The notes under the pieces were generated by a model. The model made no database searches. It was not told the origin of the DNA and worked only from the letters and a program-made list of their open reading frames with translations. Source: an uncultured candidatus Porisulfidus sp. (GTDB taxonomy: Bacteria > Pseudomonadota > Gammaproteobacteria > Poriferisulfidales > Poriferisulfidaceae). Taken from it: a stretch of DNA of 64,000 nt. The translations under genes were made by a program, and so were the position numbers. Shown piece by piece: positions 1-12,525 of the stretch (the stretch's first letter is position 1; each line of letters starts with the position of its first letter). The stretch covers positions 800,001 through 864,000 of the forward strand of contig OZ220480.1 of NCBI GenBank assembly GCA_965116025.1. Direction: 5' to 3'.

Positions 1-2
1 GA

Positions 3-785
3 GGAGATTCGGATCTGAAGGCGGATTCGAATGGTTGCGCGGCTGGCAATACGCTGGAAGAAGCTATTCTTCAGGGCTTCTTCGAATTGGTCGAGCGAGA
101 CGCCTTCGCGGTCTGGTGGTATAACCGGCTACGCCTGCCCGAGGTGAGCCTGGAGAGCTTCGATGACGAATATCTCTCGACCGCGCGCGCTCGCTACCAG
201 GGTTTCGGCCGGGAGATGTGGGTGCTGGACGCCACGCATGATCTCGGGATCCCGACTTTCGTCGCGGTCTCGAGGCGAACCGACAAGGAAACGGAAGACA
301 TCATCTACGGAGCGGGCGCGCATTCCGATCCGCATATCGCGGTCTCGCGCGCGGTATGCGAGCTGAATCAGTTTCTGAACTGGGCCCAAGGGTCGGAGCG
401 CGGCGGTTGCGGCCATGACGTAGACGATCCGATGTGTCTCTGGTGGTGGCGAAACGCGAAGCTCTCGGAGCATTCCTATTTGGCGCCGGATGGCGATTCC
501 ACCCAGCGTGGAAAATCGGACTATCCCGTCCCCGACACCACGGATGTCAGAGAGGATATCGAATGGTGCCGCGCCTTGGTCGAGAGCAAGGGCCTGGAGT
601 TTTTGGCGCTCGACCAGACTCGTCCCGATATCGGTATGCCGGTGGCGAGGGTCATCGTGCCCGGCCTGCGCCATTTTTGGGAGCGCTTCGCGCCCGGTCG
701 CCTGTTCGGCGTGCCGGTCGAGATGAAGTGGCGCGAAACTCCTCTCGCGGAAGCGGATCTAAACCCGGTCCCGGTTCTCGTGTGA
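3..785 (+). CDS. YcaO-family cyclodehydratase, C-terminal part (5'-partial at window edge)
   Basis: Frame is open from base 3 and reads DSNGCAAGNTLEEAILQGFFELVERD (YcaO ATP-binding motif), then RAVCELNQ and VIVPGLRHFW. The Pro-rich C-terminus NPVPVLV is typical of azoline-forming YcaOs. Confidence 0.93.
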   Translation, partial: GDSDLKADSNGCAAGNTLEEAILQGFFELVERDAFAVWWYNRLRLPEVSLESFDDEYLSTARARYQGFGREMWVLDATHDLGIPTFVAVSRRTDKETEDIIYGAGAHSDPHIAVSRAVCELNQFLNWAQGSERGGCGHDVDDPMCLWWWRNAKLSEHSYLAPDGDSTQRGKSDYPVPDTTDVREDIEWCRALVESKGLEFLALDQTRPDIGMPVARVIVPGLRHFWERFAPGRLFGVPVEMKWRETPLAEADLNPVPVLV

Positions 786-822: not shown

Positions 823-1929
823 ATGAGCGTCGCCGAGCAATGGCCCAACACAGAGCGCCGCCTCCTTCGCGAGGCGGATTCCTTAGGGGCGTTGCTGGAA
901 CGGCTTCGAAAGCATGTCTCGCCCGTATTGATTGGCGACGAGGAGTGGGCCGGCGTGCTGGAGCGCGCTTATGAGTTGCCCGTGACGATGGCAGCCTTCC
1001 CTTTCGGCTTCGAGATTCCGTTAAGCGATTCTCGACCGAGAGCGGATCTGGGAGTCTCGCTCGTCGGCGGCAGTCAGTCGGCGGAATTTTTCGAGACGAG
1101 GGAGAAACTCGAGGATCGCGATCCGTCAGCCTCGGGCATCGCTTGGTTGCTACGCGAGATGAAGCCGGAAGACTCCCCATTGCGTCGCGTCGTCGGCCAG
1201 AAGATGCTGCTGGAATACGACATCGACAGGATGCCGGACGGGACGCCTCCGTCTCCAGGCGTCTTTCTGTATCCCGACGAGCGAGTTCTGGCTGGTGACG
1301 GCTCCGACCGGAATCTCCAAGGCTTGAGGACGGTGGCCGACGCCGTGGCTTCCGCGACGGGCCGGGAATTGAGCGAAGCCGAGCGTCGACGAATCGATCA
1401 GGTGTATCTGGCGATGAGGCCAGACACGGAAATGCGAGCGATCGGCGCCTTCCCGTCACGCGCGAAAGCCACTCGATTGACGGCCACGGGATTCCAGAAA
1501 GCCGAGGATGTCGCGGGGTTTCTGGAGCGCGCGAACTGGCCTGGACGGCGCGCGCTGGCGGCATCGACCATATCACGTTTCGAGCGCCGCGAGGCGTTTT
1601 CCTATATGGGAATCCACTGCGACGTGACGGAAAATGGCGTGGGCTCAAATCTCGGAGTAAGTTTTTTCGCCCAGGAAGGGCAGTGGCTCAAGGACATTCG
1701 GCATTGGACCCCTCTCATCGATGGCCTGCTCGCGGAGCGATTCTCGATCCCAGAGAAGTTGCCTGAGTTGTTCGCTTGGTCCGGCTCGACGGCTTTCTCC
1801 GGCGAATCTGGCTCGTTCGCGCTCGTGCGCGGCATCCACCACATCAAGCTGACGCTGGTCGATGATCGGGTCGAGCGCGTCAAGGCGTACGTTTTCTTCC
1901 TGATCTTCGCTTGGCCTTTGACCCAATAA
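823..1929 (+). CDS. RiPP-cluster hypothetical protein, possibly an ABBA-type (aromatic/peptide) prenyltransferase fold
   Basis: 368 aa directly downstream of YcaO. Motifs GFEIPL..RADLGV, LLEYD, and a C-terminal HHIKL...VKAY recall the K-x-Y strand motifs of ABBA prenyltransferases. Fold assignment is inference. Confidence 0.5.
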   Translation: MSVAEQWPNTERRLLREADSLGALLERLRKHVSPVLIGDEEWAGVLERAYELPVTMAAFPFGFEIPLSDSRPRADLGVSLVGGSQSAEFFETREKLEDRDPSASGIAWLLREMKPEDSPLRRVVGQKMLLEYDIDRMPDGTPPSPGVFLYPDERVLAGDGSDRNLQGLRTVADAVASATGRELSEAERRRIDQVYLAMRPDTEMRAIGAFPSRAKATRLTATGFQKAEDVAGFLERANWPGRRALAASTISRFERREAFSYMGIHCDVTENGVGSNLGVSFFAQEGQWLKDIRHWTPLIDGLLAERFSIPEKLPELFAWSGSTAFSGESGSFALVRGIHHIKLTLVDDRVERVKAYVFFLIFAWPLTQ

Positions 1930-2203
1930 GCGGGAACCCTTTCGAGAAACGCCCACGCGCGACAGGATCTTTACGGCCTCGCTGTCCACGCTCCTCGCGT
2001 TTTGAGGCGAGGCGGGCGAGCGTGTTGCCCTCGACCTCATGGGTGAGAACCAAAGAGACGGGCGGCCAAAGCACCCATTTCCCGGGGACAGCACCGAACA
2101 AGGCTTTCGGAGGCTGCCCGCGGCGTGAGCCGCAATGCTGTCCATGACGGATTGTATCGCACAGCCTCGCTCCTGACTTCGACGGTCCAATCGGTTTTCC
2201 CGT

Positions 2204-4100
2204 GTGCGCAACGAATTGGATCACGCGGAAGCCCTTCCTTCATATGTCATGCGCTCGCGTTCACGGCGGGCGTGGTCACGATTCGAGCGGCGGGTCGGGT
2301 GTGCCGCCCTAGAATTGGTGAATCCCACAGGGCGAAGGCGGGGCGTGAGGCGAACCCGCCGCCTGGACGACGAGCGCCGGCGGCTCGCCGCCGCCGGAAC
2401 GCTGGCCGAGGCCGCGCCCCGCTTCGACCGCCCGGCCCGCTCGGTCGCCGGCGGCGGCGTCCTCGCCGCCCTTCCCGCCCTGCTCCGGGAAGGACTGCTG
2501 GAGCCCGCCCGCCGCATGCTCCGCCTGCCCGACGGCTACTACGGACTGTCCGCCGTCCTGCTCACCTGCGCTTTCCTGACCCTCTCCCGCGCCCGCGCCC
2601 CCGAGGCCCTGCGCCACCAGGCGCCCGGAGAGTGGGGCCTCCCGCTCGGGCTCGACCGCTGCCCCGAGGTCAAGACCCTGCGCCAGAAGACGGCCCTGAT
2701 CGCCGATGCCGAGGAGACCGTCCACGCTTGGCAGAGCGCCTTGGCGCGCGCCTGGATGGAGGACGAGCGCGACGACTGGATGACCTTGGCCGTGGACGGC
2801 CACGTCAAGGTCTACCACGGACGAAAGGGGCGCTTGCCCAAGGGCTTCGTCTCGCGCCAGAAGCTGTGTCTGCCGGCGTCCGCCAGCTACTGGGTCAACG
2901 TCCTTGGCGGCAAGCCCCTGCTGTGCCTGCATAAGAAGCTGGACCCGAAGCTGACGCGCGCCCTGGAGGAGGACGTCCTGCCCGAGCTGGAGCGGATGGG
3001 GCGGGTGCCGGCGGACGCGCCGGACCTGCGCCAGGGCGGGCGCCCCGTGGCCACCCTGGTGTTCGACCGCGAGGGCTGGAGCCCGCAGCTGTTCGCGCGC
3101 CTGGCGCGCCGCGGCGTCGCCTGCGTGACGTGGCGCAAGGGCTCCCGGGAAGACGACTGGCCGCGCGCGGAGTTCCGCTCCCGCGCGGTTCCGGTTCACG
3201 GCCCGGTCGGGAGGGGCGGCTCGCTGACCGTCTCGCTGGCCGAACGCCGGGTCGAGCTGCGCGACGGCCTTCAGGTTCGGGAGATCCGCCGCCTGCTGGA
3301 GAGCGGGCGGCAGGCGGCGCTGATCACGACCCATCCGGACATGCCGACCGAGGAGGTCGCCGGCGCCATGTTCTCGCGCTGGTCGCAAGAGAACTTCTTC
3401 AAGTACATGCGCGAGGAGTTCCGGCTCGACGCCTTGCCGGAGCATGCCGTGGAGCCGCTCGACCCGGAGACCCGGGTGGTCAATCCCGAGCGGCGGGAGG
3501 CGCGGAAAGAAGTCGAGCGCATCAAGCGGAGGCTTCAGTCCGTCGAGACGCGGGTCCGCGGGAAGCGCGCGAAGGGAATGGACGCGACCGGGCTTGAGGC
3601 CGAGGCGCGCGCGCTTCGGAAGCGTCTTGAGGAAGAGACGCTCCGCCGCGACCGGCTACCCGCCCACGTGCGCGCCGGGGAGCTCCGTGAACTCTCCCTG
3701 TAGGCGTTTCCTCATTTCGCCCGCCCACGTGCGCGCCGGGGAGCTCCCGAAGGAGCGGCGGCTCGACGCCTTGCCGGTCGCCCGGCGCCTGTTCGCCGAT
3801 CTCATCCGCATGATCTGCTACCGCGCCGAGACCCGCATGATGGCGGCCTCGGTCGCGGCGCCGGGGCGGAAGCCCCTGACGCGCAAAGCGCTCGCCGCCC
3901 TGATGCGGGCCGACGCCCATCTCCGGCCCGACCCGGAGCGCGGCGTCCTTGAGGTCGAGTTGCTCGGCTTCGCCAACGCCGCCGCCGAGCGAGCCCTCCG
4001 CCCGCTGCTCGACGAGCTCAATCGAACCGAAACCCGCTACCCCGGAACCGACCTCCGGCTCGTCTATCGCGTCGCCGACGAACCGTCCGAAGAGCGATAA
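2204..4100 (+). pseudogene. Large DDE-type transposase, split by a 61-bp insertion and probably 5'-truncated
   Basis: ORF 2204-3703 has LAVDGHVKVYHG, LVFDREGWS and MFSRWSQENFFKYM. It continues in the +1 frame to 4100. PAHVRAGEL occurs in both frames, and removing 61 bp fuses them. Confidence 0.88.
3659..3747. repeat. 28-bp exact direct repeat flanking a 33-bp unique insert (single repeat-spacer-repeat unit)
   Basis: cccgcccacgtgcgcgccggggagctcc at 3659-3686 and 3720-3747; insert gtgaactctccctgtaggcgtttcctcatttcg at 3687-3719. Confidence 0.95.
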
Positions 4101-4137
4101 CGCGTCATCCTATAATGCACTAGGTCAGGATGTCTGA
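4098..4137 (+). mobile_element. Right end / terminal inverted repeat of the IS, containing an outward TATAAT
   Basis: ...tataatgcactaggtcaggatgtctga. A near-identical end lies at 50614-50641, where it pairs with a left IR tcagacatcttgatct. Confidence 0.75.
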
Positions 4138-4206
4138 AATGAGGGCGTGTAAGATAAATTACACGGGCGCGGCTCGCGCAACGAAATTGTCAAGGAGGAT
4201 GACGGC

Positions 4207-5643
4207 ATGGCTAGAACGATATGGATAAAAGGCGTGAAGTACACGGTCGGATATTCAACTAAGGGAACAGAAGGGGATGACGAGTTCGATGCGGGAGCAG
4301 CGTACTTCGTTTTTGGCTACGGCGGCGATGACATTATCTATGGTAGGTACAACGATTATATATGGGGGGGCGAAGGCAACGATACGATTTACGCGGCGGG
4401 CAAGTCTCAAAAGCCTTTAGGGACGAGTACTTACGATGCTGGAGGCGTGATATCTGGCGGTAATGGCAATGACAAACTTTACGGGGGGAGTTCCATAACT
4501 GGCGGGCCGGGGAACGACCTGATGCGGAGTTACGATTCATCTGCCAAGATGAGCGGCGGTGAAGGTGATGACACGATGCATGGCGGTAAAGGCGATGACA
4601 CGATGCATGGCGGTGAAGGTAAAGACACGATGAAGGGTGGCCTAGGCGATGACACGATGAATGGCGGCAAGGGCAAAGACTGGATGAAGGGCGGTGAAGG
4701 CAACGACCAGATGCAGGGCGGTGAAGGTAAAGACATAATCTTCGGCGGTGCGGGCGATGACCTGATCTTCGGAGATCGTATGCTAATCAAGACCATGTCG
4801 GTAGGCAGACCGAGCGAGTGGCAACATAGAGATGTCATATATAGAAACTTCAGCGAAAAAATCGGGGAGTGGATATACGAAGACGAGAAGTGGATATACG
4901 AAGAAGGGGAGTTTAGACACCAAGACGGATCAACACCGCTCCCTGAAGGGATGCATCGAATCTACGAAGGGGGAAATTACCCATACCCGAAACAGCCCGA
5001 TGGTGCGGCTGATATCCTGCATGGCGGTAAAGGCAATGACACGATGATTGGCGGCCCAGGCGCCGACACGATGAATGGCGGTAAAGGCGAGGACACGATG
5101 AATGGCGGCCCAGGTGCCGACACGATGAATGGCGGCAAGGGCAATGACCGGATGGAAGGCGGCCTAGGCGATGACACGATGGATGGCGGCGCGGGCAAAG
5201 ACCGGATGGATGGCGGCCTAGGCGATGACACGATGGATGGCGGCGCGGGCAATGACCGGATGGAAGGCGGCCTAGGCGATGACACGATGGATGGCGGCGC
5301 GGGCAATGACCGGATGGAAGGCGGCCTAGGCGATGACACGATGGATGGCGGCGCGGGCAATGACACGCTATTTGGCGGCAAGGGCGATGATCGCTTTGTC
5401 TTCGGCCCGAATAGTGGACACGATACGATTTATGATTATGAAGACAAGGAAATGATCGTGTTCGCGTCCGAGTTGGGCTTGAGTTTTGAGGACTTGATAA
5501 TCAAGGATGAAACAGACCCTATCTACCAGGGAGCGGCAGAGCCTTTTGTAAGAATAACCGGCTCGCATGCAAATGACTGGAGCGTGACGCTGGTCGGCGT
5601 AGCTTCGGACTTGACCGAATCGGACTTTGATTTTCTAGGATGA
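4207..5643 (+). CDS. RTX-type (hemolysin-like) calcium-binding repeat protein, probable type I secretion substrate
   Basis: RBS aaggagg, many GGxGxDxM/L nonapeptides in two blocks, and a C-terminal GHDTIYDY...LTESDFDF tail typical of T1SS cargo. Confidence 0.92.
   Translation: MARTIWIKGVKYTVGYSTKGTEGDDEFDAGAAYFVFGYGGDDIIYGRYNDYIWGGEGNDTIYAAGKSQKPLGTSTYDAGGVISGGNGNDKLYGGSSITGGPGNDLMRSYDSSAKMSGGEGDDTMHGGKGDDTMHGGEGKDTMKGGLGDDTMNGGKGKDWMKGGEGNDQMQGGEGKDIIFGGAGDDLIFGDRMLIKTMSVGRPSEWQHRDVIYRNFSEKIGEWIYEDEKWIYEEGEFRHQDGSTPLPEGMHRIYEGGNYPYPKQPDGAADILHGGKGNDTMIGGPGADTMNGGKGEDTMNGGPGADTMNGGKGNDRMEGGLGDDTMDGGAGKDRMDGGLGDDTMDGGAGNDRMEGGLGDDTMDGGAGNDRMEGGLGDDTMDGGAGNDTLFGGKGDDRFVFGPNSGHDTIYDYEDKEMIVFASELGLSFEDLIIKDETDPIYQGAAEPFVRITGSHANDWSVTLVGVASDLTESDFDFLG
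5146..5361 (+). repeat. Four near-identical 54-bp tandem repeats in the RTX gene
   Basis: gaccggatgga... recurs at 5146, 5200, 5254 and 5308, encoding DRMEGGLGDDTMDGGAGN. Confidence 0.9.
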
Positions 5644-5957
5644 GGCTCGCGCTGTTCGCGCTGGCGTTCTGTCTCGCGGGGAGCGCGGCGGCGGCGCCAC
5701 CGGAGTTTTGCCGCCAGCACGAGTTTGGCGACAGCCGACCCTATTTTGAATACGCCATGGGCTTCTTTTGGGGGCGTAAAGCAGGATGGGACGTTACTAG
5801 GAATATCGAGTATTGGAACCTATTTGTGGCTACATTTGATTCTGACTTAAAGGACGAGGACGGCATGACAAGGAATGGAGACGCTTGCACACTGCTTGGA
5901 AGGATGGACGGCTTTGTACAAGGATGGCGCGACCGCAAGGAGTTGCTAGGCGAATAG
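5640..5957 (+). CDS. Small exported hypothetical protein
   Basis: ATGA overlap with the RTX stop; signal peptide MRLALFALAFCLAGSAAA. Confidence 0.7.
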   Translation: MRLALFALAFCLAGSAAAAPPEFCRQHEFGDSRPYFEYAMGFFWGRKAGWDVTRNIEYWNLFVATFDSDLKDEDGMTRNGDACTLLGRMDGFVQGWRDRKELLGE

Positions 5958-6545
5958 CCCGGAAGTGGAAATTCCGCCCTAGTGGAAAGTGGAAATCGCG
6001 CCCTAGCGTCGGGTGCCCTGTCGGCTTGATTGATGCCCCGTGTAGTGGTGCGCGGCGGGCCTGGGATATGCAAACATTTTTGATTGGCTCGAAAGTGGAG
6101 CGGGGGTGGGGAATTGGCTCGCGGCTACGCTATTGACTGATAGGCCGCGAGCGTCTAGGATGGCGGGCATGGCAACGATTGACATTCGCATACCTGGTTC
6201 CACCGCGCTATCGAGCCTCGCGGAGAATGGGCTGGGCTTCACCCCGTCGGGAGGGAGGCCGCGCAAGAGCGCGGACGGGCGCGTTAGCGTCCAGCGTCTG
6301 AGATACCGATCTCAGACGCCATGGCGACATCACGCCTAAAAGGACTTGCCCGCGACACGGCGGGCTGGATAGAGACCCTCGAAGTACCTGAAGGCCCCGG
6401 ACGCGGGGAGCGGGTCACTTTACGCGCTTGGCAGCGCGAGTTCCTACGCGGGGCACTCGCGCCCGACACTCGGATAGCCGCCGTGAGCATGGCTCGCGGA
6501 GCGGGCAAGAGTACGACCTGCGCGGCATTGGCCGCCGCCGCCCTA

Positions 6546-7710
6546 GTGTAGTGTAATCTAATTAGAGATATTTATACTTGCTTGGCGCGGAGGGGCGCCA
6601 GCTTGTCCAGGATCTGCTCGGGCGTCTTGCTCCACGAGAACGGCTTCGGGTCGGCGTTGTGATGATCCAGAAAATCGTGGATCGCCCGGGTCAGCTCCCG
6701 CACGCTTCGGAACACCCCCCGCCGCACGCGCCGCTCCGTCAGCTCCCGGAAGAACCGCTCCACCAGGTTCAGCCAGGACGCCGAGGTCGGCGTGAAGTGG
6801 ACGTGGAAACGCGGCCGCCGCGCGAACCATTCCCTCACCTTGCGATGCTTGTGGGTGGCGTAGTTGTCCACGATCAGGTGGACCTCCAGCTCCTTCGGGA
6901 CATGCCCGTCGATCTCCCGCAGGAAGCGCAGGAACTCGACATGCCGATGGCGCTGGTAGCAACGCCCGAGCACCGTGCCGTCCACGGCGTTCAGGGCCGC
7001 GAACAAGGTGGTGGTCCCGTGCCGCTTGTAGTCGTGCGTCATGGTTCCGGCGCGCCCCTTCTTCATCGGCAATCCGGGCTGGGTGCGATCCAGCGCCTGG
7101 ATCTGCGACTTCTCGTCGACGCACAGGACCAAGGCATGCTCAGGCGGGTCCAGATACAGCCCGACGACGTCGCGCAGCTTCTCGACGAAGCGCTCGTCGG
7201 TGGACAGCTTGAACGTTTGGACCAGATGCGGCTTCAGCCCGTGCGCGCGCCAGATCTTGTGAACGGTGGCGTGGCTCACCCCGGCGTGCTGAGCCATGCC
7301 ACGGGTCGACCAATGCGTGGCCTGTTCGGGAGCGTCATGCAGGGTGTCCTCGACGATGCGCTTGACCACGTCGTCGCCGTAGGTCCGCTTGCGCCCTCGC
7401 CCAGGACGGTCGGACAGCCCGGCCAGGCGCCGCTCGGCGAAGCGGTTCCTCCACTTCGCCACCGTGCTGGCGCTCGCGTCCAGTTGATCGGCGATGTCGA
7501 TGGTGCGCCGGCCCTCGGCGGCGAGCAGCACGACGCGAGCGCGAAACGCGTCGCGAACGCTGGAGAGGCTCGAGCGAGCCGTCTCGCTCAGGGCGGCGAG
7601 CTCCTCGGCGCTGAGCTCGATGGGAATGGCGCGGCGCATGCGATTCTCCTCCTGATCGCGGCAATCCGGCGAAGTGTAGCATAAATATATATTATTGACG
7701 TACACTACAC
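6546..7710 (-). mobile_element. IS630-family insertion sequence
   Basis: Terminal inverted repeats gtgtagtgta / tacactacac, flanked by a duplicated TA target (6544-6545 and 7711-7712). Confidence 0.93.
6572..7639 (-). CDS. IS630 transposase (intact)
   Basis: VDEKSQIQALDRTQP, THDYKRHGTTTLFAAL, DNYATHK and PTSASWLNLVERFF motifs; RBS aggagg before the ATG at 7639. Confidence 0.95.
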   Translation of the reverse strand: MRRAIPIELSAEELAALSETARSSLSSVRDAFRARVVLLAAEGRRTIDIADQLDASASTVAKWRNRFAERRLAGLSDRPGRGRKRTYGDDVVKRIVEDTLHDAPEQATHWSTRGMAQHAGVSHATVHKIWRAHGLKPHLVQTFKLSTDERFVEKLRDVVGLYLDPPEHALVLCVDEKSQIQALDRTQPGLPMKKGRAGTMTHDYKRHGTTTLFAALNAVDGTVLGRCYQRHRHVEFLRFLREIDGHVPKELEVHLIVDNYATHKHRKVREWFARRPRFHVHFTPTSASWLNLVERFFRELTERRVRRGVFRSVRELTRAIHDFLDHHNADPKPFSWSKTPEQILDKLAPLRAKQV

Positions 7711-8734
7711 TAGTTGGGCCGCTCGCTCAGTCCTGATCGAGCGTCCTGGTGGTGGCGGCCAGTTTCGCGCAGGCCGTCCGAACGGGCGGGCTGGCGCGCG
7801 ATTTCTTGGCGCCGTTCATCGAGCGCGACCGGAAGGCGTGGCGCATCCAGGACAGCGCCAACAGGTTCGAGCTGGAGTATTTGCCCGCCGGCATTCGCCT
7901 GCGGTGTTGCGGAACGAATCCCCGGACGCTTCACGGGCTGGCCCCGGCCCTGTCGATCCTTGATGAGGCCGCCCAGTGGCAGGTCAACGAGAGCGAGCGG
8001 CTGTGGAACGCGATCTTGACCGCGAGCGGCAAGCAGGGGGCTAGCCGCATTCTGGCCATATCGACGGCGCCGACCCGTCGGGATCATTGGATGTCGCGCC
8101 TGCTCCGCGAGGGCGGGCCGGGGATCTGGACGCGGCTGTATCAGGCGAAGGATGACGCGCTGACCTGGGCGAACGTGAAGCGGGCCAATCCCGGCCTGTC
8201 GAGCGCTCCGACGCTGGCCGCCGCGATCCGCGCGGAGCTGGAACACGCCCGGCGGGATGAGGCGTCGGCGCATGGCTTCCGGGCGTACCGGCTGAATCTC
8301 GGAACCAGCGAGCAGGGGCGGCAATTTCTGATCGACGCGAACACGTGGGCGGCGTTGCCGCTCGGCTCGGAGCGCGAGGGGGAGCCGATCTGGGGCGTGG
8401 ACATGGGCGGGGGGCAATCTTGGAGCGCCTGCGCGGCGTACTGGCCGGACACGGGCTTGCTCGATTGCATGGCGGTGGTCGGCTCCGACCCGACGCTGGA
8501 CGCGCGGGAGCGGGCCGACCGGGTGGAGTCCGGACTCTACCTGACCATGCGCCGCCGGGGGGAGCTGGCGATCATCGAGGGCAAGCGCGTTCCCGACCCG
8601 CTCGACCTGCTCCGGCTCGCGCTGGAGCGCTACGGGGAGCCGCAGGCGATCGTGGCGGATCGCTACCGCTTGCAGGAGCTGGCGGACGCGGTGGACGCGC
8701 TCGGACTTCGCCCGGCTCCGGTGAAGCGGGGGAT

Positions 8735-8758
8735 GGGGGGGGGGGGGGGGGGGGGGGG
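8735..8758. repeat. G24 homopolymer at a sequence junction
   Basis: 24 consecutive G between the terminase and the IS4-like remnant. Confidence 0.9.
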
Positions 8759-8945
8759 ACTAAGGCCGATCTTCTCGGGGAGCTCCTCAAGGAGCGTGTC
8801 GCGTCCAGCTGGGGGCAGGTCAAGCCCCACGGCGTCAAGCGAAAGGCGAGTTCCTACCTTATTCAGGCGCATGGGCATCTGTCCCGCCAGGTCCGCGACT
8901 GGACCCCCCAATTATGCCCAATTCCGTCTTAAAGCAACAGTATCG
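8759..8945 (+). mobile_element. IS4-family remnant (transposase C-terminus and right end)
   Basis: Reads LLGELLKERVASSWGQVKPHGVKRKASSY...stop, resembling the IS4 C-terminal PRxVKRKxSxY motif. It is followed by cttaaagcaacagtatcg, which resembles IS4-type ends (...AACAGTATTG). Confidence 0.6.
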
Positions 8946-11002
8946 TCGCTAGCCGCCCGGACGGACGGACAGGCTTGCCGCTTCAGGAGGGTTTTTCGGT
9001 CCACGGCGACCAGCAGGGGTGGCAGAAAGAAGAGATCGGCGACCAGCGCGAACGCGATGATCAACGCCGTGAGCAAGCCGACCTGCATGGTGGGGACGAA
9101 GGGCGACAAGACCAGGATCAGAAAGCCTCCGACCAGCGCGAGCGAGGTGGTGAGCAGCGCGGGCCCGGCGGTTTGGAACGCGTAGCGGACCGCGTCGTCG
9201 GGAGTGGCGCCGCGCTCGCGGCGCGCGCGACGGTATTTGCTCAGGAAATGAACCGTGTCGTCCACCACGATGCCGATGGTCATGGCCAGCACGACCGACA
9301 GCGCCAGCCCGACCTCTCCCACCGCCAGCCCCCAGATGCCAAATCCCATCGCCCCAGGCACGAGATTGGGCACGAGGCTGACGAGGCCGAGGCGGAGAGA
9401 GCGAAGGGCGACGATCAGAAAGAGGGAGATGCCGAAGAGTGCCACGGCCGTTCCGAGCAGCATGGCCCGAATGTTGCGTTGTCCGATGTGCGCGAAAAGC
9501 AGCGCGGGCCCCGATGCCTCAACCCGGACGACGTTTGGCGCGTGGTCGCTCAGCCACGCGCGCGCGCGTCCAGCTCCAGCGTCTCGCGCGAGGAAAGCGT
9601 CTTCGCGGTCACGGTCACGCGCGTGGCGGATCTCGATATGTCGATTTGGTTGTTGAGATCGAGCCCCAAGGGGAGCGAGAGCTCGTAGAGCAGCAAATAT
9701 TGCGCCGCGAGCTCTCGGTTGTCGGGCAATCGATAGGCATCCGGGTCGTCGCCGTGCATGCTTTTGTTGAGTTGTCGGAAGGTGTCGCTGATGGTTAGGA
9801 CATGCCTGGTCTCCGGCTGGGCCCGGTACCAGTCGGCGAAGGTGGCCAGGTCCGCGAGGTACGCGGGGTTGGAGATCTCGCCCGGCCCGCGCGAGCTGAG
9901 CGAATACTCGATCACCGTGTTGTCGCTCAGACGCTCGTCCAGGAAGTCCGAATCCTGCCGGAACTCGATGCTTTCGTCAAAAAAATGCACGAGAACGTCG
10001 TTGAGCTCGTTGTGCGGGATGGCGGCCGACCCCCAGAGCAGTGGCGCGCGCCAGCGCAGCGTGAACTCCGCGAGAGCCGCCATCATCGGGTCGCGTCGCC
10101 GGGTTGTGGGGGCGCGCATGGGAAGGAGGGAGAGCAGCGCGGGCAGGAACGTGACCGAAAGCAGGAACGAGGCGCCGACGCCCAGCTGCCACGAACGTTC
10201 CGAGGTGGCGGTACGGGGGCACTTCGGAGAAGTTCATGGTCAAGAAGCCGAACGCCGTCGTCGCGCTGGCCAGGAAAATCGGGCTCAGATTGATCTGGAG
10301 GGATTCGACGATGGCGGTGCGTTTCGAGTCCCCCGCCTGAACGCGTTGTCGCGTAGCCACCAGAAGATGCATGCAACTGGCCACGACGACCATCAGCACG
10401 ATGGTTGGGGCCGGGGCCGTGGGAGGAGTGAACGGCAGTCCGATCCATCCGCCCAGTCCCATGGAGACCAGGACCGAGAAAACGATCACGAGCCCGGTCG
10501 CGGCGACCAGGTTGCCGGCGAGCCGTGGCTCGCTCAGGGCCGTCTCTCGGATTCTGGCGCGCGCGTCCGCGTCGCCTAAGGTTCGCGGGTCGACGAGGTC
10601 GCGCACGAGCAGATCGTCGCCGCCCGCCGTCGCGCGCTGGAAGTTGGTGATGGAGTCCACCCGTCGGGAATGTGGCGCGAGCCACGCTCGCTTGGTCAGC
10701 CAAATGGTGGCGGCGAGCGCCTGTTCCGACGCGAAGTTACCCGCTTCCGGAACGATCATGAACCGGACGTTGTCGTTTTTCCCGCAGGTGTTTTCCAGGA
10801 GCTCGAACGCCAGGAGCTGGGGGTTGTCCTCGCTGAAGAACATCCGGTAATTCGTGGAGGTCTTGAGAAGCATGCCGCCGCTCGCGGCGGCTGCGACCAG
10901 CGTCAGGGTAGCGGTGATGATGGGCCAGCGGGCCGCGACGACCCGCTCCCCGAACCGGGTCGCGAAAGGTGGAGAGAGGGAGTCGGTCGCGCTCGTCATC
11001 AC
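8912..11002 (-). pseudogene. MMPL/RND-family transporter, frameshifted and internally deleted
   Basis: Three consecutive fragments (9977-11002, 9550-10119, 8912-9463) carry YRMFFSEDNPQL, ASATTAFGFL, AQYLLLYELSLP and IGIVVDDTVHFLSKY. Confidence 0.88.
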
Positions 11003-11190
11003 GCGAACGCCGACATGAACAGTTTTTTGGGAAGGTTACCGTCGAGGCGCGGCGGAACGGGACGCGGCGGCCAAAAACTTCTGGTGAGAGAAGACGCGAT
11101 ACGAGCGCTCCACGCCAGAAGTTTTTTGCTTACAAAGTCGCTTCCGAATCCAGCCCGTCTATCTCGAGAAAGCAGGCGGGCATGATGATT

Positions 11191-11444
11191 TTAGAGGCAG
11201 CAGCAAAGGCTGGCGGCGATCGACTCGAGTTGCTCCTCGTCCAGCTCCGGACCAGCCGGCAGGGCGAGATGAAGAGTCGTCATATCGCTCTCGTGCGCCT
11301 TAGATCTCGAAATTGTCGGGCGCCTCGATATTGAGCTTCTCGGCGATGGCCCCCCTTGGGGTCATCCATGAGCCGATTGCGGAACTCCGCGTCCTCGCAT
11401 GCTTTCTCTGTGAGATGGCGGCGCATCTCTTCCGAACGTTGCAT
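11191..11444 (-). pseudogene. NHLP (nitrile-hydratase-leader) RiPP precursor with core LCCCL and two +1 frameshifts
   Basis: Reconstructed by hand: MQRSEEMRRHLTEKACEDAEFRNRLMDDPKG/AIAEKLNIEAPDNFEI/KAHESDMTTLHLALPAGPELDEEQLESIAAS-LCCCL-stop. The span is 254 bp, i.e. 84 codons plus 2 extra bases. Confidence 0.85.
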
Positions 11445-11700
11445 TGCCGCTTCCGCAAATGATCCCCTAATGATATCCTCCTCGCTAGGTGGACTATATC
11501 CGCGTTTTGGCATCTAGCTCGAACCCGAAATGGTCGCTTTAGTCAACGCGGCCGCGACGTTCTCGATCCAAAGCGATTCCTTTTCGCCCGACGCGCGGGC
11601 GGCGAGGTTGGCTTCCCGCCCGGATCTCGGGGAGCCAAAGCTGGTACGGTCGGTAGAGAATCCGGGCCTCCCCCGCGGGTCGGAAGTAGAATACGCCTTC

Positions 11701-12525
11701 ATGCGGCTGGACTTCACCAAGATGCATAGTTTGGGCAACGACTTCGTCGTGCTGGACGCTTGGGCGCGCGAGATTTCCTTGACGCCGTCGCAGCTGCGGC
11801 GGATCGCGGATCGCCGCGCGGGAGTCGGCTGCGATCAGATCTTGTTTCTGGATCCCGACCCGGATGTCGATTTCGCCTACCGCGTTCACAACGCCGACGG
11901 CCAGCCAGCGGGGCAATGCGGCAACGGCGCGCGGTGCTTGGCGCGCTACGCCGCCGACCGCGGATACGCGGACTCCGAGCGCCAGCGCGCGCGCGCGCCC
12001 TCGGGGGAGGTGGCGCTACGGCTGCGCGACGATGGCTCGGTGAGCGTCGACATGGGAGTCCCGCGTCTAGAGCCGGACGAGATCCCCTTCTCGCATCGGG
12101 GCCGCCAGTCGTCCTATGCCTTGGAAGTGGGCGGCGAGGATCTCTCGCTAGGCGCGGTGTCCATGGGAAACCCGCACGCGGTGCTCACCGTCGACTCCGT
12201 CCCCAGCGCGCCGGTGCGCGAGCTGGGCCCCCGCGTCGAGACCCACCCGAAATTCCCCCGGCGCGCCAACGTGGGCTTCATGGAGATCTCCACGCCCCGG
12301 CACATCCGGCTGCGCGTGTGGGAGCGCGGGGTCGGGGAGACCCCGGGCTGCGGCACCGGCGCCTGCGCGGCCGTGGTCGTGGGCCGGCTGGCGGGAGAGC
12401 TGCGCGAGGACGTCGCGGTGTCGCTTCCCGGCGGCGACCTCCAAGTTCGCTGGGAGGGAGAGGGGCGGTCCGTGACGTTGCGCGGAAGCGCGGAATACGC
12501 TTATACGGGGAGTCTGGAGCTATGA
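11701..12525 (+). CDS. dapF: Diaminopimelate epimerase
   Basis: FTKMHSLGNDF, CGNGARC, SMGNPHAV and ERGVGETPGCGTGACA motifs. Confidence 0.97.
   Translation: MRLDFTKMHSLGNDFVVLDAWAREISLTPSQLRRIADRRAGVGCDQILFLDPDPDVDFAYRVHNADGQPAGQCGNGARCLARYAADRGYADSERQRARAPSGEVALRLRDDGSVSVDMGVPRLEPDEIPFSHRGRQSSYALEVGGEDLSLGAVSMGNPHAVLTVDSVPSAPVRELGPRVETHPKFPRRANVGFMEISTPRHIRLRVWERGVGETPGCGTGACAAVVVGRLAGELREDVAVSLPGGDLQVRWEGEGRSVTLRGSAEYAYTGSLEL

Follow-up and report, generated by a model that had tools for sequence, protein, structure and literature searches.

A precursor gene split over three frames

The window (the whole stretch of 64,000 nucleotides that was analysed, G000:C1:800001-864000) belongs to a single-contig genome of 2,018,984 bases that is 99.39% complete. 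It opens on the end of a cyclodehydratase gene, followed by a prenyltransferase-like gene, a block of mobile DNA, a broken transporter gene and the remains of a short NHLP precursor gene (Table 1). Three-frame translation of window positions 11560-11150 resolved these remains into three colinear pieces, each in a different frame of the minus strand. Piece 1 begins with a Met at 11444 and ends in Lys-Gly at the G run (a C6 on the plus strand, hence a G6 on the coding strand), piece 3 makes 36 codons together with the core (11301-11194), and the three pieces sum to 83 codons (31+16+36).

Table 1. Positions of the precursor remains and of the neighbouring features, in window coordinates
Feature	Position	Strand	Remarks
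Whole srp-family NHLP precursor gene, probable pseudogene	11191..11468	-	From former upstream start codon (now AGG, 11468-11466) to TAA stop (11193-11191)
Piece 1, helix-rich N-terminal part of leader	11352..11444	-	31 codons from internal Met; conserved N-terminal extension up to 11468
G6 run with one extra G, first frameshift	11350..11355	-	Single-base gap versus intact paralog
Piece 2 of leader	11303..11350	-	16 codons, second frame; ends in a TAA created by the shift
Extra T (ATC-T-AAG), second frameshift	11302..11302	-	Produces in-frame TAA; no homopolymer
Piece 3 of leader	11209..11301	-	L(X)4L-type motif ELDEEQL; ends in Ala-Ser (Ala-Gly in the family); Ser codon 11211-11209
Core codons L-C-C-C-L	11194..11208	-	Followed by TAA 11193-11191
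MMPL/HAE3-type RND transporter pseudogene	8954..10999	-	Two frame changes; about 76 residues without counterpart
Inserted mobile or foreign DNA, about 7 kb	1930..8950		Recognised by Pfam and by repeated copies elsewhere in the genome
Intact cluster gene, predicted ABBA (aromatic) prenyltransferase fold	823..1929	+	368 codons; fold search
3' part of intact cyclodehydratase gene	1..782	+	Leader-binding domain fused to YcaO; gene starts at genome position 798266

A hidden 83-residue NHLP precursor with an LCCCL core had been predicted from the letters alone, and profile searches of the window bear this out. Piece 1 matches the NCBIfam model TIGR03793 (NHLP leader) at model positions 3-28 (20.2 bits, E 3.9e-4) and piece 3 matches it at positions 48-76 (19.0 bits, E 9.5e-4), in colinear order, against a curated cut-off of 50.9 bits and with the pieces scored separately and the middle piece unscored. 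The 27-residue stretch that contains the 16-codon middle piece gave no match of its own in the NCBIfam search. A six-frame search of the whole genome recovered the same two TIGR03793 pieces. Lacking any uninterrupted frame of about 80-90 codons, and carrying two frameshifts, the gene is not a working NHLP member.

The residues themselves have changed as well. Among 134 distinct family sequences, 27 columns are at least 90% conserved, and the pseudogene departs from the consensus at four of them: E44K and G46N, both in piece 2, V57A, and G86S. The last of these places a Ser at the final leader position before the core, where all 140 family members scored have Gly.

An intact paralog elsewhere in the genome

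A second copy with the same core and a leader of the same family is intact. It lies at G000:C1:1989945-1990217 (P0001) and, unlike the window copy, has an uninterrupted frame (91 codons) and the Ala-Gly site ahead of LCCCL; in the six-frame search it scores 72 bits on TIGR03793, above the cut-off, and it departs from none of the 27 highly conserved columns. With the paralog as query, tblastn found the pseudogene pieces at E 6e-26. The DNA of the two copies aligns at 82% mean column identity over 422 columns, flanks included, and within the coding part just two gaps open, each of one base: one at the G run, the other at ATC-T-AAG. Relative to the paralog, the upstream start has changed from ATG to AGG and the last leader codon from GGC to AGC (Gly to Ser). 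The AGG change need not inactivate the gene, since the internal Met is still present here and serves as the start in 27 or more homologues; homologues of 84 residues begin at that Met.

The paralog has no YcaO gene nearby: it stands by itself, with a methyltransferase-like gene on one side and dinB on the other, and no YcaO remnant was found beside it at E 1e-4. A promoter scan, which is weak evidence, gave an 11-of-12 sigma-70-like promoter upstream of the paralog and no promoter-like site upstream of the window copy. The 1142-codon ORF that adjoins the orphan precursor (genome 1986210-1989635, minus strand; L013:6210-9635) weakly matches domains of MmeI-type and N6 DNA methyltransferases and may encode a type IIG restriction-modification enzyme.

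The biosynthetic cluster and its damaged arm

The genes of the cluster that lie upstream and into the first 2 kb of the window follow the order HlyD, C39-ABC, second ABC, an 898-codon protein, an 839-codon YcaO and the 368-codon protein. The NHLP export genes (genome 789194-795382) lie 16-22 kb from the pseudogene. The C39-peptidase ABC exporter scores 864.7 bits on TIGR03796, above the cut-off of 853.3; the second ABC exporter and the short HlyD have their best NCBIfam matches below cut-off, to TIGR03797 (669.5 bits) and TIGR03794 (93.4 bits), respectively. The YcaO gene is open over 839 codons and matches the profiles Pfam YcaO, TIGR03604 and TIGR03882 over their full length; its product joins a TOMM leader-binding domain (TIGR03882) to a YcaO of the SagD type. 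The 898-codon protein (genome 795569-798262; L012:12569-15262) carries a fatty-acid-desaturase/AlkB-type domain at residues 210-438, and its C-terminal part resembles GlnE/GlnD nucleotidyltransferase regions. The 368-codon protein had no sequence match in Pfam, NCBIfam or PDB. Its AlphaFold2 model (pLDDT 92.6, from an alignment of 27 homologues) had IptA, EpzP, DMATS, PriB, NphB and the cyanobactin enzyme LimF as top Foldseek matches, with probability 1.00 and TM about 0.5, and the protein is predicted to adopt the ABBA aromatic prenyltransferase fold.

The pseudogene and its MMPL neighbour form an arm that is parted by mobile DNA from the intact YcaO, prenyltransferase-like, desaturase-domain and exporter genes. 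When searched by tblastn with the 780-residue orthologue of a same-genus genome (G008), in which the gene is a single 780-codon frame, the window MMPL gene was recovered as pieces in frames -1, -1, -2 and -1, with residues 181-256 unmatched. It matches Pfam MMPL; the HAE3-type assignment is taken from the orthologue. The 7-kb insert consists of a Transposase_29 element, an RTX-repeat ORF, an IS630-like element and an ORF without Pfam match, and in G008 the genes flanking the insert site are only about 30-60 bases apart.

Several parts of this insert can be followed across the genome. The IS630-like element (window 6543-7713) has three genome copies that are 99.4-99.5% identical, and the Transposase_29 element (window 2358-3900) has a second copy at genome 420155-421875 (97%). 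IS activity in this 2.0-Mb genome is recent. The RTX-repeat ORF (478 codons, window 4207-5643) is flanked by two insertion sequences and is made up mostly of RTX calcium-binding nonapeptide repeats (10 Pfam stretches), with 54-base tandem repeats at 5018-5364. No Pfam family matches the ORF at window 7749-8950, which at its 3' end overlaps with the broken, opposite-strand MMPL gene; a paralog at genome 617748-618746 is 44% identical to this ORF.

Six same-genus genomes were compared for gene order. In two of them (G008 and G005) the order is compact: desaturase-fusion, YcaO, prenyltransferase-like, MMPL, precursor, HlyD, C39-ABC and ABC, with MMPL and precursor on the other strand from the first three genes. 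G015 has the compact order without the YcaO and prenyltransferase-like genes within the 20 kb examined, the order is rearranged in G001 and G009, and in G013 the precursor lies beside YcaO and dinB. In relatives with the compact order the precursor directly adjoins an intact MMPL gene, and since it stands next to MMPL in the window too, the window copy is in the ancestral position. The YcaO gene and divergent precursor of G013 adjoin dinB, which is also the neighbour of the orphan copy in the present genome.

The genome holds a second NHLP/TOMM cluster outside the window (G000:C1:1077466-1095197). This cluster comprises a C39 ABC exporter, two further fused YcaO genes (55-60% identity to that of the window) and no fewer than four NHLP precursors, in which a Gly-Gly site is followed by a long core rich in Ser, Thr, Gly and Ala.

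A second sample and a sister strain

Four public runs, all from one study, hold the stretch, and we compared their per-run contigs over window 10900-11900. The contigs of X1, which is possibly the assembly's own source, and of X2 show no differences from the window over 10900-11769 or more and keep both insertions. X2 is a second sample (depth 54), and its contig, covering 10900-11769, was built independently.

At depth 245, the contig of X3 covers the entire interval 10900-11900 with both flanking genes, and it differs from the window by 83 substitutions and 20 gap letters. It comes from a sister strain that is about 90% identical. X3 and X4 both have one base fewer at 11350 and lack the base at 11302, leaving the sister strain with a plain open frame at the same locus. 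The original prediction had placed one indel in the G6 run and another near 11302, and the gaps against the paralog and these two contigs now position both exactly. Five codon changes in the sister strain all go in the direction of the family consensus: Gly stands in place of Ser (11211 T>C), Glu in place of Lys (11338 T>C), Phe in place of Leu (11335 G>A) and Val in place of Ala (11297 G>A), and the AGG reads ATG, a restored start (11467 C>A). These were read from the listed X3 and X4 substitutions set on window coordinates, with 36 further differences beyond those listed. The Gly of the sister strain, added to the Gly of all scored family members, corroborates the idea that the Ser at the cleavage site reflects decay. 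The inactivation is lineage-specific.

The sister strain was sought among 15 same-genus genomes and ruled out there, the best DNA identity to the locus being 68-79%; dapF was not seen beside the precursor in those 15 genomes.

From the extra G in a homopolymer, a classic site of indel errors, and from evidence that comes from contigs rather than raw reads, one could suspect that both additional bases are sequencing or assembly errors and that the gene is intact in the organism. We regard this as very unlikely. The second insertion falls outside any homopolymer, the independently built X2 contig repeats both, and contigs of the same study resolve the G run one base shorter in the sister strain. 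An error would also leave aside the four replacements at highly conserved positions and a neighbouring MMPL gene broken in several places, and the completeness of the genome speaks against an indel-ridden assembly. Because the contig of the second sample keeps both insertions, and because exactly these two bases are missing from the sister strain, we read the window copy as a pseudogene and not as an assembly error.

Core residues and the halogenase

Background on this peptide family comes from the srp clusters of sponge symbionts; Nguyen et al. (J Am Chem Soc 2021) is said to be the source paper for SrpE and these clusters. Passages in PMC10858898 and PMC10286304 describe a precursor SrpE with core LCCCW, a YcaO enzyme SrpC that makes three thiazolines, and a brominase SrpI that acts on the terminal Trp, in line with the original prediction. 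A preprint (bioRxiv 10.1101/2023.06.09.544420) gives ITEEQL as a motif of srp precursors and reports that, within their clusters, no gene is transcribed more strongly than the precursor.

The intact paralog has 62 relatives in a large protein collection. We tallied the cores over 63 rows, counting among them the query itself and the 83-residue form of it: LCCCGI (27 rows), LCCCL (14 rows, 12 from other genomes), LCCCI, LCCC and LCCCW (4 rows each), LCCCT and LCCCV (3 rows each), and other cores in one row each. The relatives ending in LCCCW are 83 residues long, carry the ITEEQL motif and are 48-52% identical to the paralog, and LCCCW loci hold homologues of the same fused YcaO (53-66% identity), prenyltransferase-like (35-42%) and desaturase-domain proteins. 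The proposed kinship to the srp precursor thus stands, with the match to an SrpC-type YcaO judged through LCCCW loci and not against the SrpC sequence itself. Judging by these sequences, Trp-less cores are common, not rare, in public genomes. A full-text literature search for Trp-less core strings gave no RiPP paper among the matches listed, and the review PMC12426817 makes no mention of the srp terms sought.

In species-representative genomes, 358 stretches encode relatives, and the best 79 loci were kept; their records span many phyla and include several sponge-symbiont taxa. Only stretches with LCCC fitted the scan pattern, and loci were ranked by likeness to the Trp-less query, so the ratio of 22 Trp-ending loci to 57 with other cores is not a frequency. 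A YcaO homologue occurs in 18 of the 22 Trp-ending loci and in 49 of the 57 others, placing intact LCCC homologues near YcaO genes, and a prenyltransferase-like homologue occurs in 18/22 and 51/57, respectively. The 898-codon desaturase-domain protein is conserved in both kinds of locus alike. The halogenase tracks the terminal Trp: a full-length copy was found in 16 of the 22 Trp-ending loci (and one more cut by a contig end), versus none of the 57 others, one of which has a 53-residue fragment. This count used as query the halogenase of an LCCCW locus, which scores 154.5 bits on Pfam Trp_halogenase. The same query gave no tblastn match in the present genome, where Pfam Trp_halogenase found only short N-terminal matches (model positions 1-43). 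The Trp-less, non-brominated branch that had been proposed is therefore supported by these sequences and proves to be large.

The 53-residue fragment lies in an LCCCGI locus (L078:3420-3578), is 60% identical to the halogenase and is the sole trace of it among the 57 loci; it may be a relic of halogenase loss.

A tree built from leaders only (91 rows) separates all 22 Trp-ending precursors from the other precursors at a branch with 99% SH-aLRT support; with only 86 columns, most other forks are poorly split. One locus, L062 (match 10001-10347), was excluded from the tree for its aberrant C-terminus, which has no Cys-rich core behind Ala-Gly, and was left out of the cleavage-site count too; it may be another broken copy. 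Cores vary widely within one genus (L018-L028, L033 and L034), where we read LCCCL, LCCC, LCCCT, LSCCL, LSCCV, LSCCC, LSCCI, LTCCGC, VLFCT and one LCCCW. Elsewhere, five full 20-kb loci have a precursor with no YcaO within 10 kb. Unlinked precursors do occur, then, which says nothing on their processing.

Discussion

We conclude, with a probability of about 0.9, that the minus strand of window 11191-11468 carries a pseudogene, inactivated recently, of an srp-family NHLP/proteusin RiPP precursor gene. The change of 4 of 27 conserved columns, versus none in the paralog, indicates a gene released from selection and not an assembly slip or a programmed shift. With the locus intact in a sister strain about 90% identical, the losses of the in-cluster precursor and of the MMPL transporter, and the IS invasion, are recent.

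Part of the broken gene could in principle still work. A 30-codon ORF at 11283-11191 is present in the sequence, begins with a conserved internal Met and keeps ELDEEQL and the core, so that one might take it for a minimal precursor with a truncated leader. According to passages in PMC10858898 and PMC12537861, the structured N-terminal leader is dispensable for SrpI, and the L(X)4L motif is enough. SrpI is a halogenase, however, and the present genome has none; for the azoline-forming YcaO MprC, part of PMC12455567 reports that leader truncations retaining L(X)4L nearly abolish modification. The Gly of the cleavage site is gone, moreover, and the scan saw no promoter-like site upstream, so we hold a minimal precursor to be hardly probable at all. 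Next to no chance is left for a regulated precursor expressed by programmed frameshifting or transcriptional slippage: G6 runs can support slippage, yet two separate corrections would be needed, the second at a site without a slippery run, none of the 140 homologues scored has a broken frame, the locus is plainly open in the sister strain, and lost constraint is indicated by the Gly to Ser change together with the other replacements.

For the pseudogene reading, the family and the srp literature suggest what the ancestral gene would have done. It would have encoded a precursor of 83-91 residues, whose long nitrile-hydratase-like leader would dock on the leader-binding domain fused to the YcaO cyclodehydratase of the cluster. 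This enzyme would turn the three adjacent Cys of LCCCL into thiazolines, and the C39-peptidase ABC exporter would cut after Ala-Gly and export the product. A bromination step would have been absent from this pathway, since the core has no Trp and the genome no halogenase. The cluster enzymes would now act in trans on the product of the intact paralog. We infer that this orphan may be the present substrate of the cluster, as its N-terminal leader helix is nearly the same as that of the pseudogene and MprC, in the part of PMC12455567 cited above, depends on that portion of the leader. A minority of cells may carry an intact frame, or slippage may occur at the G6 run.

Comparison with known systems sets the locus close to srp. 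It shares with SrpE an 83-codon NHLP precursor and a five-residue core of Leu, three Cys and one more residue behind what is in the family an Ala-Gly site, and with the srp clusters the biosynthetic homologues described above and NHLP-type ABC export genes. It differs in that the last core residue is Leu, where passages of PMC10858898 give Trp (LCCCW), in that the genome, which was searched, is without an SrpI-type flavin-dependent Trp brominase, and in that the window copy is a pseudogene.

Generic NHLP/TOMM systems, with TIGR03793 precursors and TIGR03796, TIGR03797 and TIGR03794 exporters, were reportedly described by Haft et al. in 2010. PMC9426513 cites Haft et al. 2010 for NHLP/TOMM systems. 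The present system has in common with these, and with the MprE/MprC azoline proteusins, a leader that is long and structured, a leader-binding domain on the YcaO and an exporter with a C39 peptidase; its core is much shorter than in either. The conserved ABBA prenyltransferase fold, the desaturase-domain fusion and the MMPL transporter genes are extra to the generic NHLP/TOMM set.

The srp cluster type of sponge symbionts with core LCCCW is known already, and the gene described in this work stands on the Trp-less side. A broader scheme, which we put forward tentatively and consider somewhat less probable than its negation, would make the brominated LCCCW srp peptides described so far just one branch of a larger family whose remaining members are Trp-less and halogenase-less (LCCCL, LCCCG, LCCCGI, LSCCx and others). 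All would share the YcaO, the ABBA-fold prenyltransferase-like protein and the desaturase fusion, and the Trp-less members would make a non-brominated, possibly lipidated thiazoline peptide. The cluster in the window would be one caught in mid-decay, its precursor and MMPL genes dead and its production sustained solely by the unlinked orphan, processed in trans.

Taken singly, the window copy is of little weight: it is dead, and it duplicates a precursor of a known kind. Its interest lies in showing decay that can be dated, in a reduced symbiont genome (2.0 Mb). At the level of the family, the halogenase closely tracks the terminal Trp, and Trp-less precursors keep the same accessory genes, in a 79-locus sample ranked by likeness to a Trp-less query; the family tables are a useful pointer for finding the natural srp products. 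In the organism itself, the survival of the biosynthetic enzymes and of an unlinked precursor suggests that the product is still under selection.
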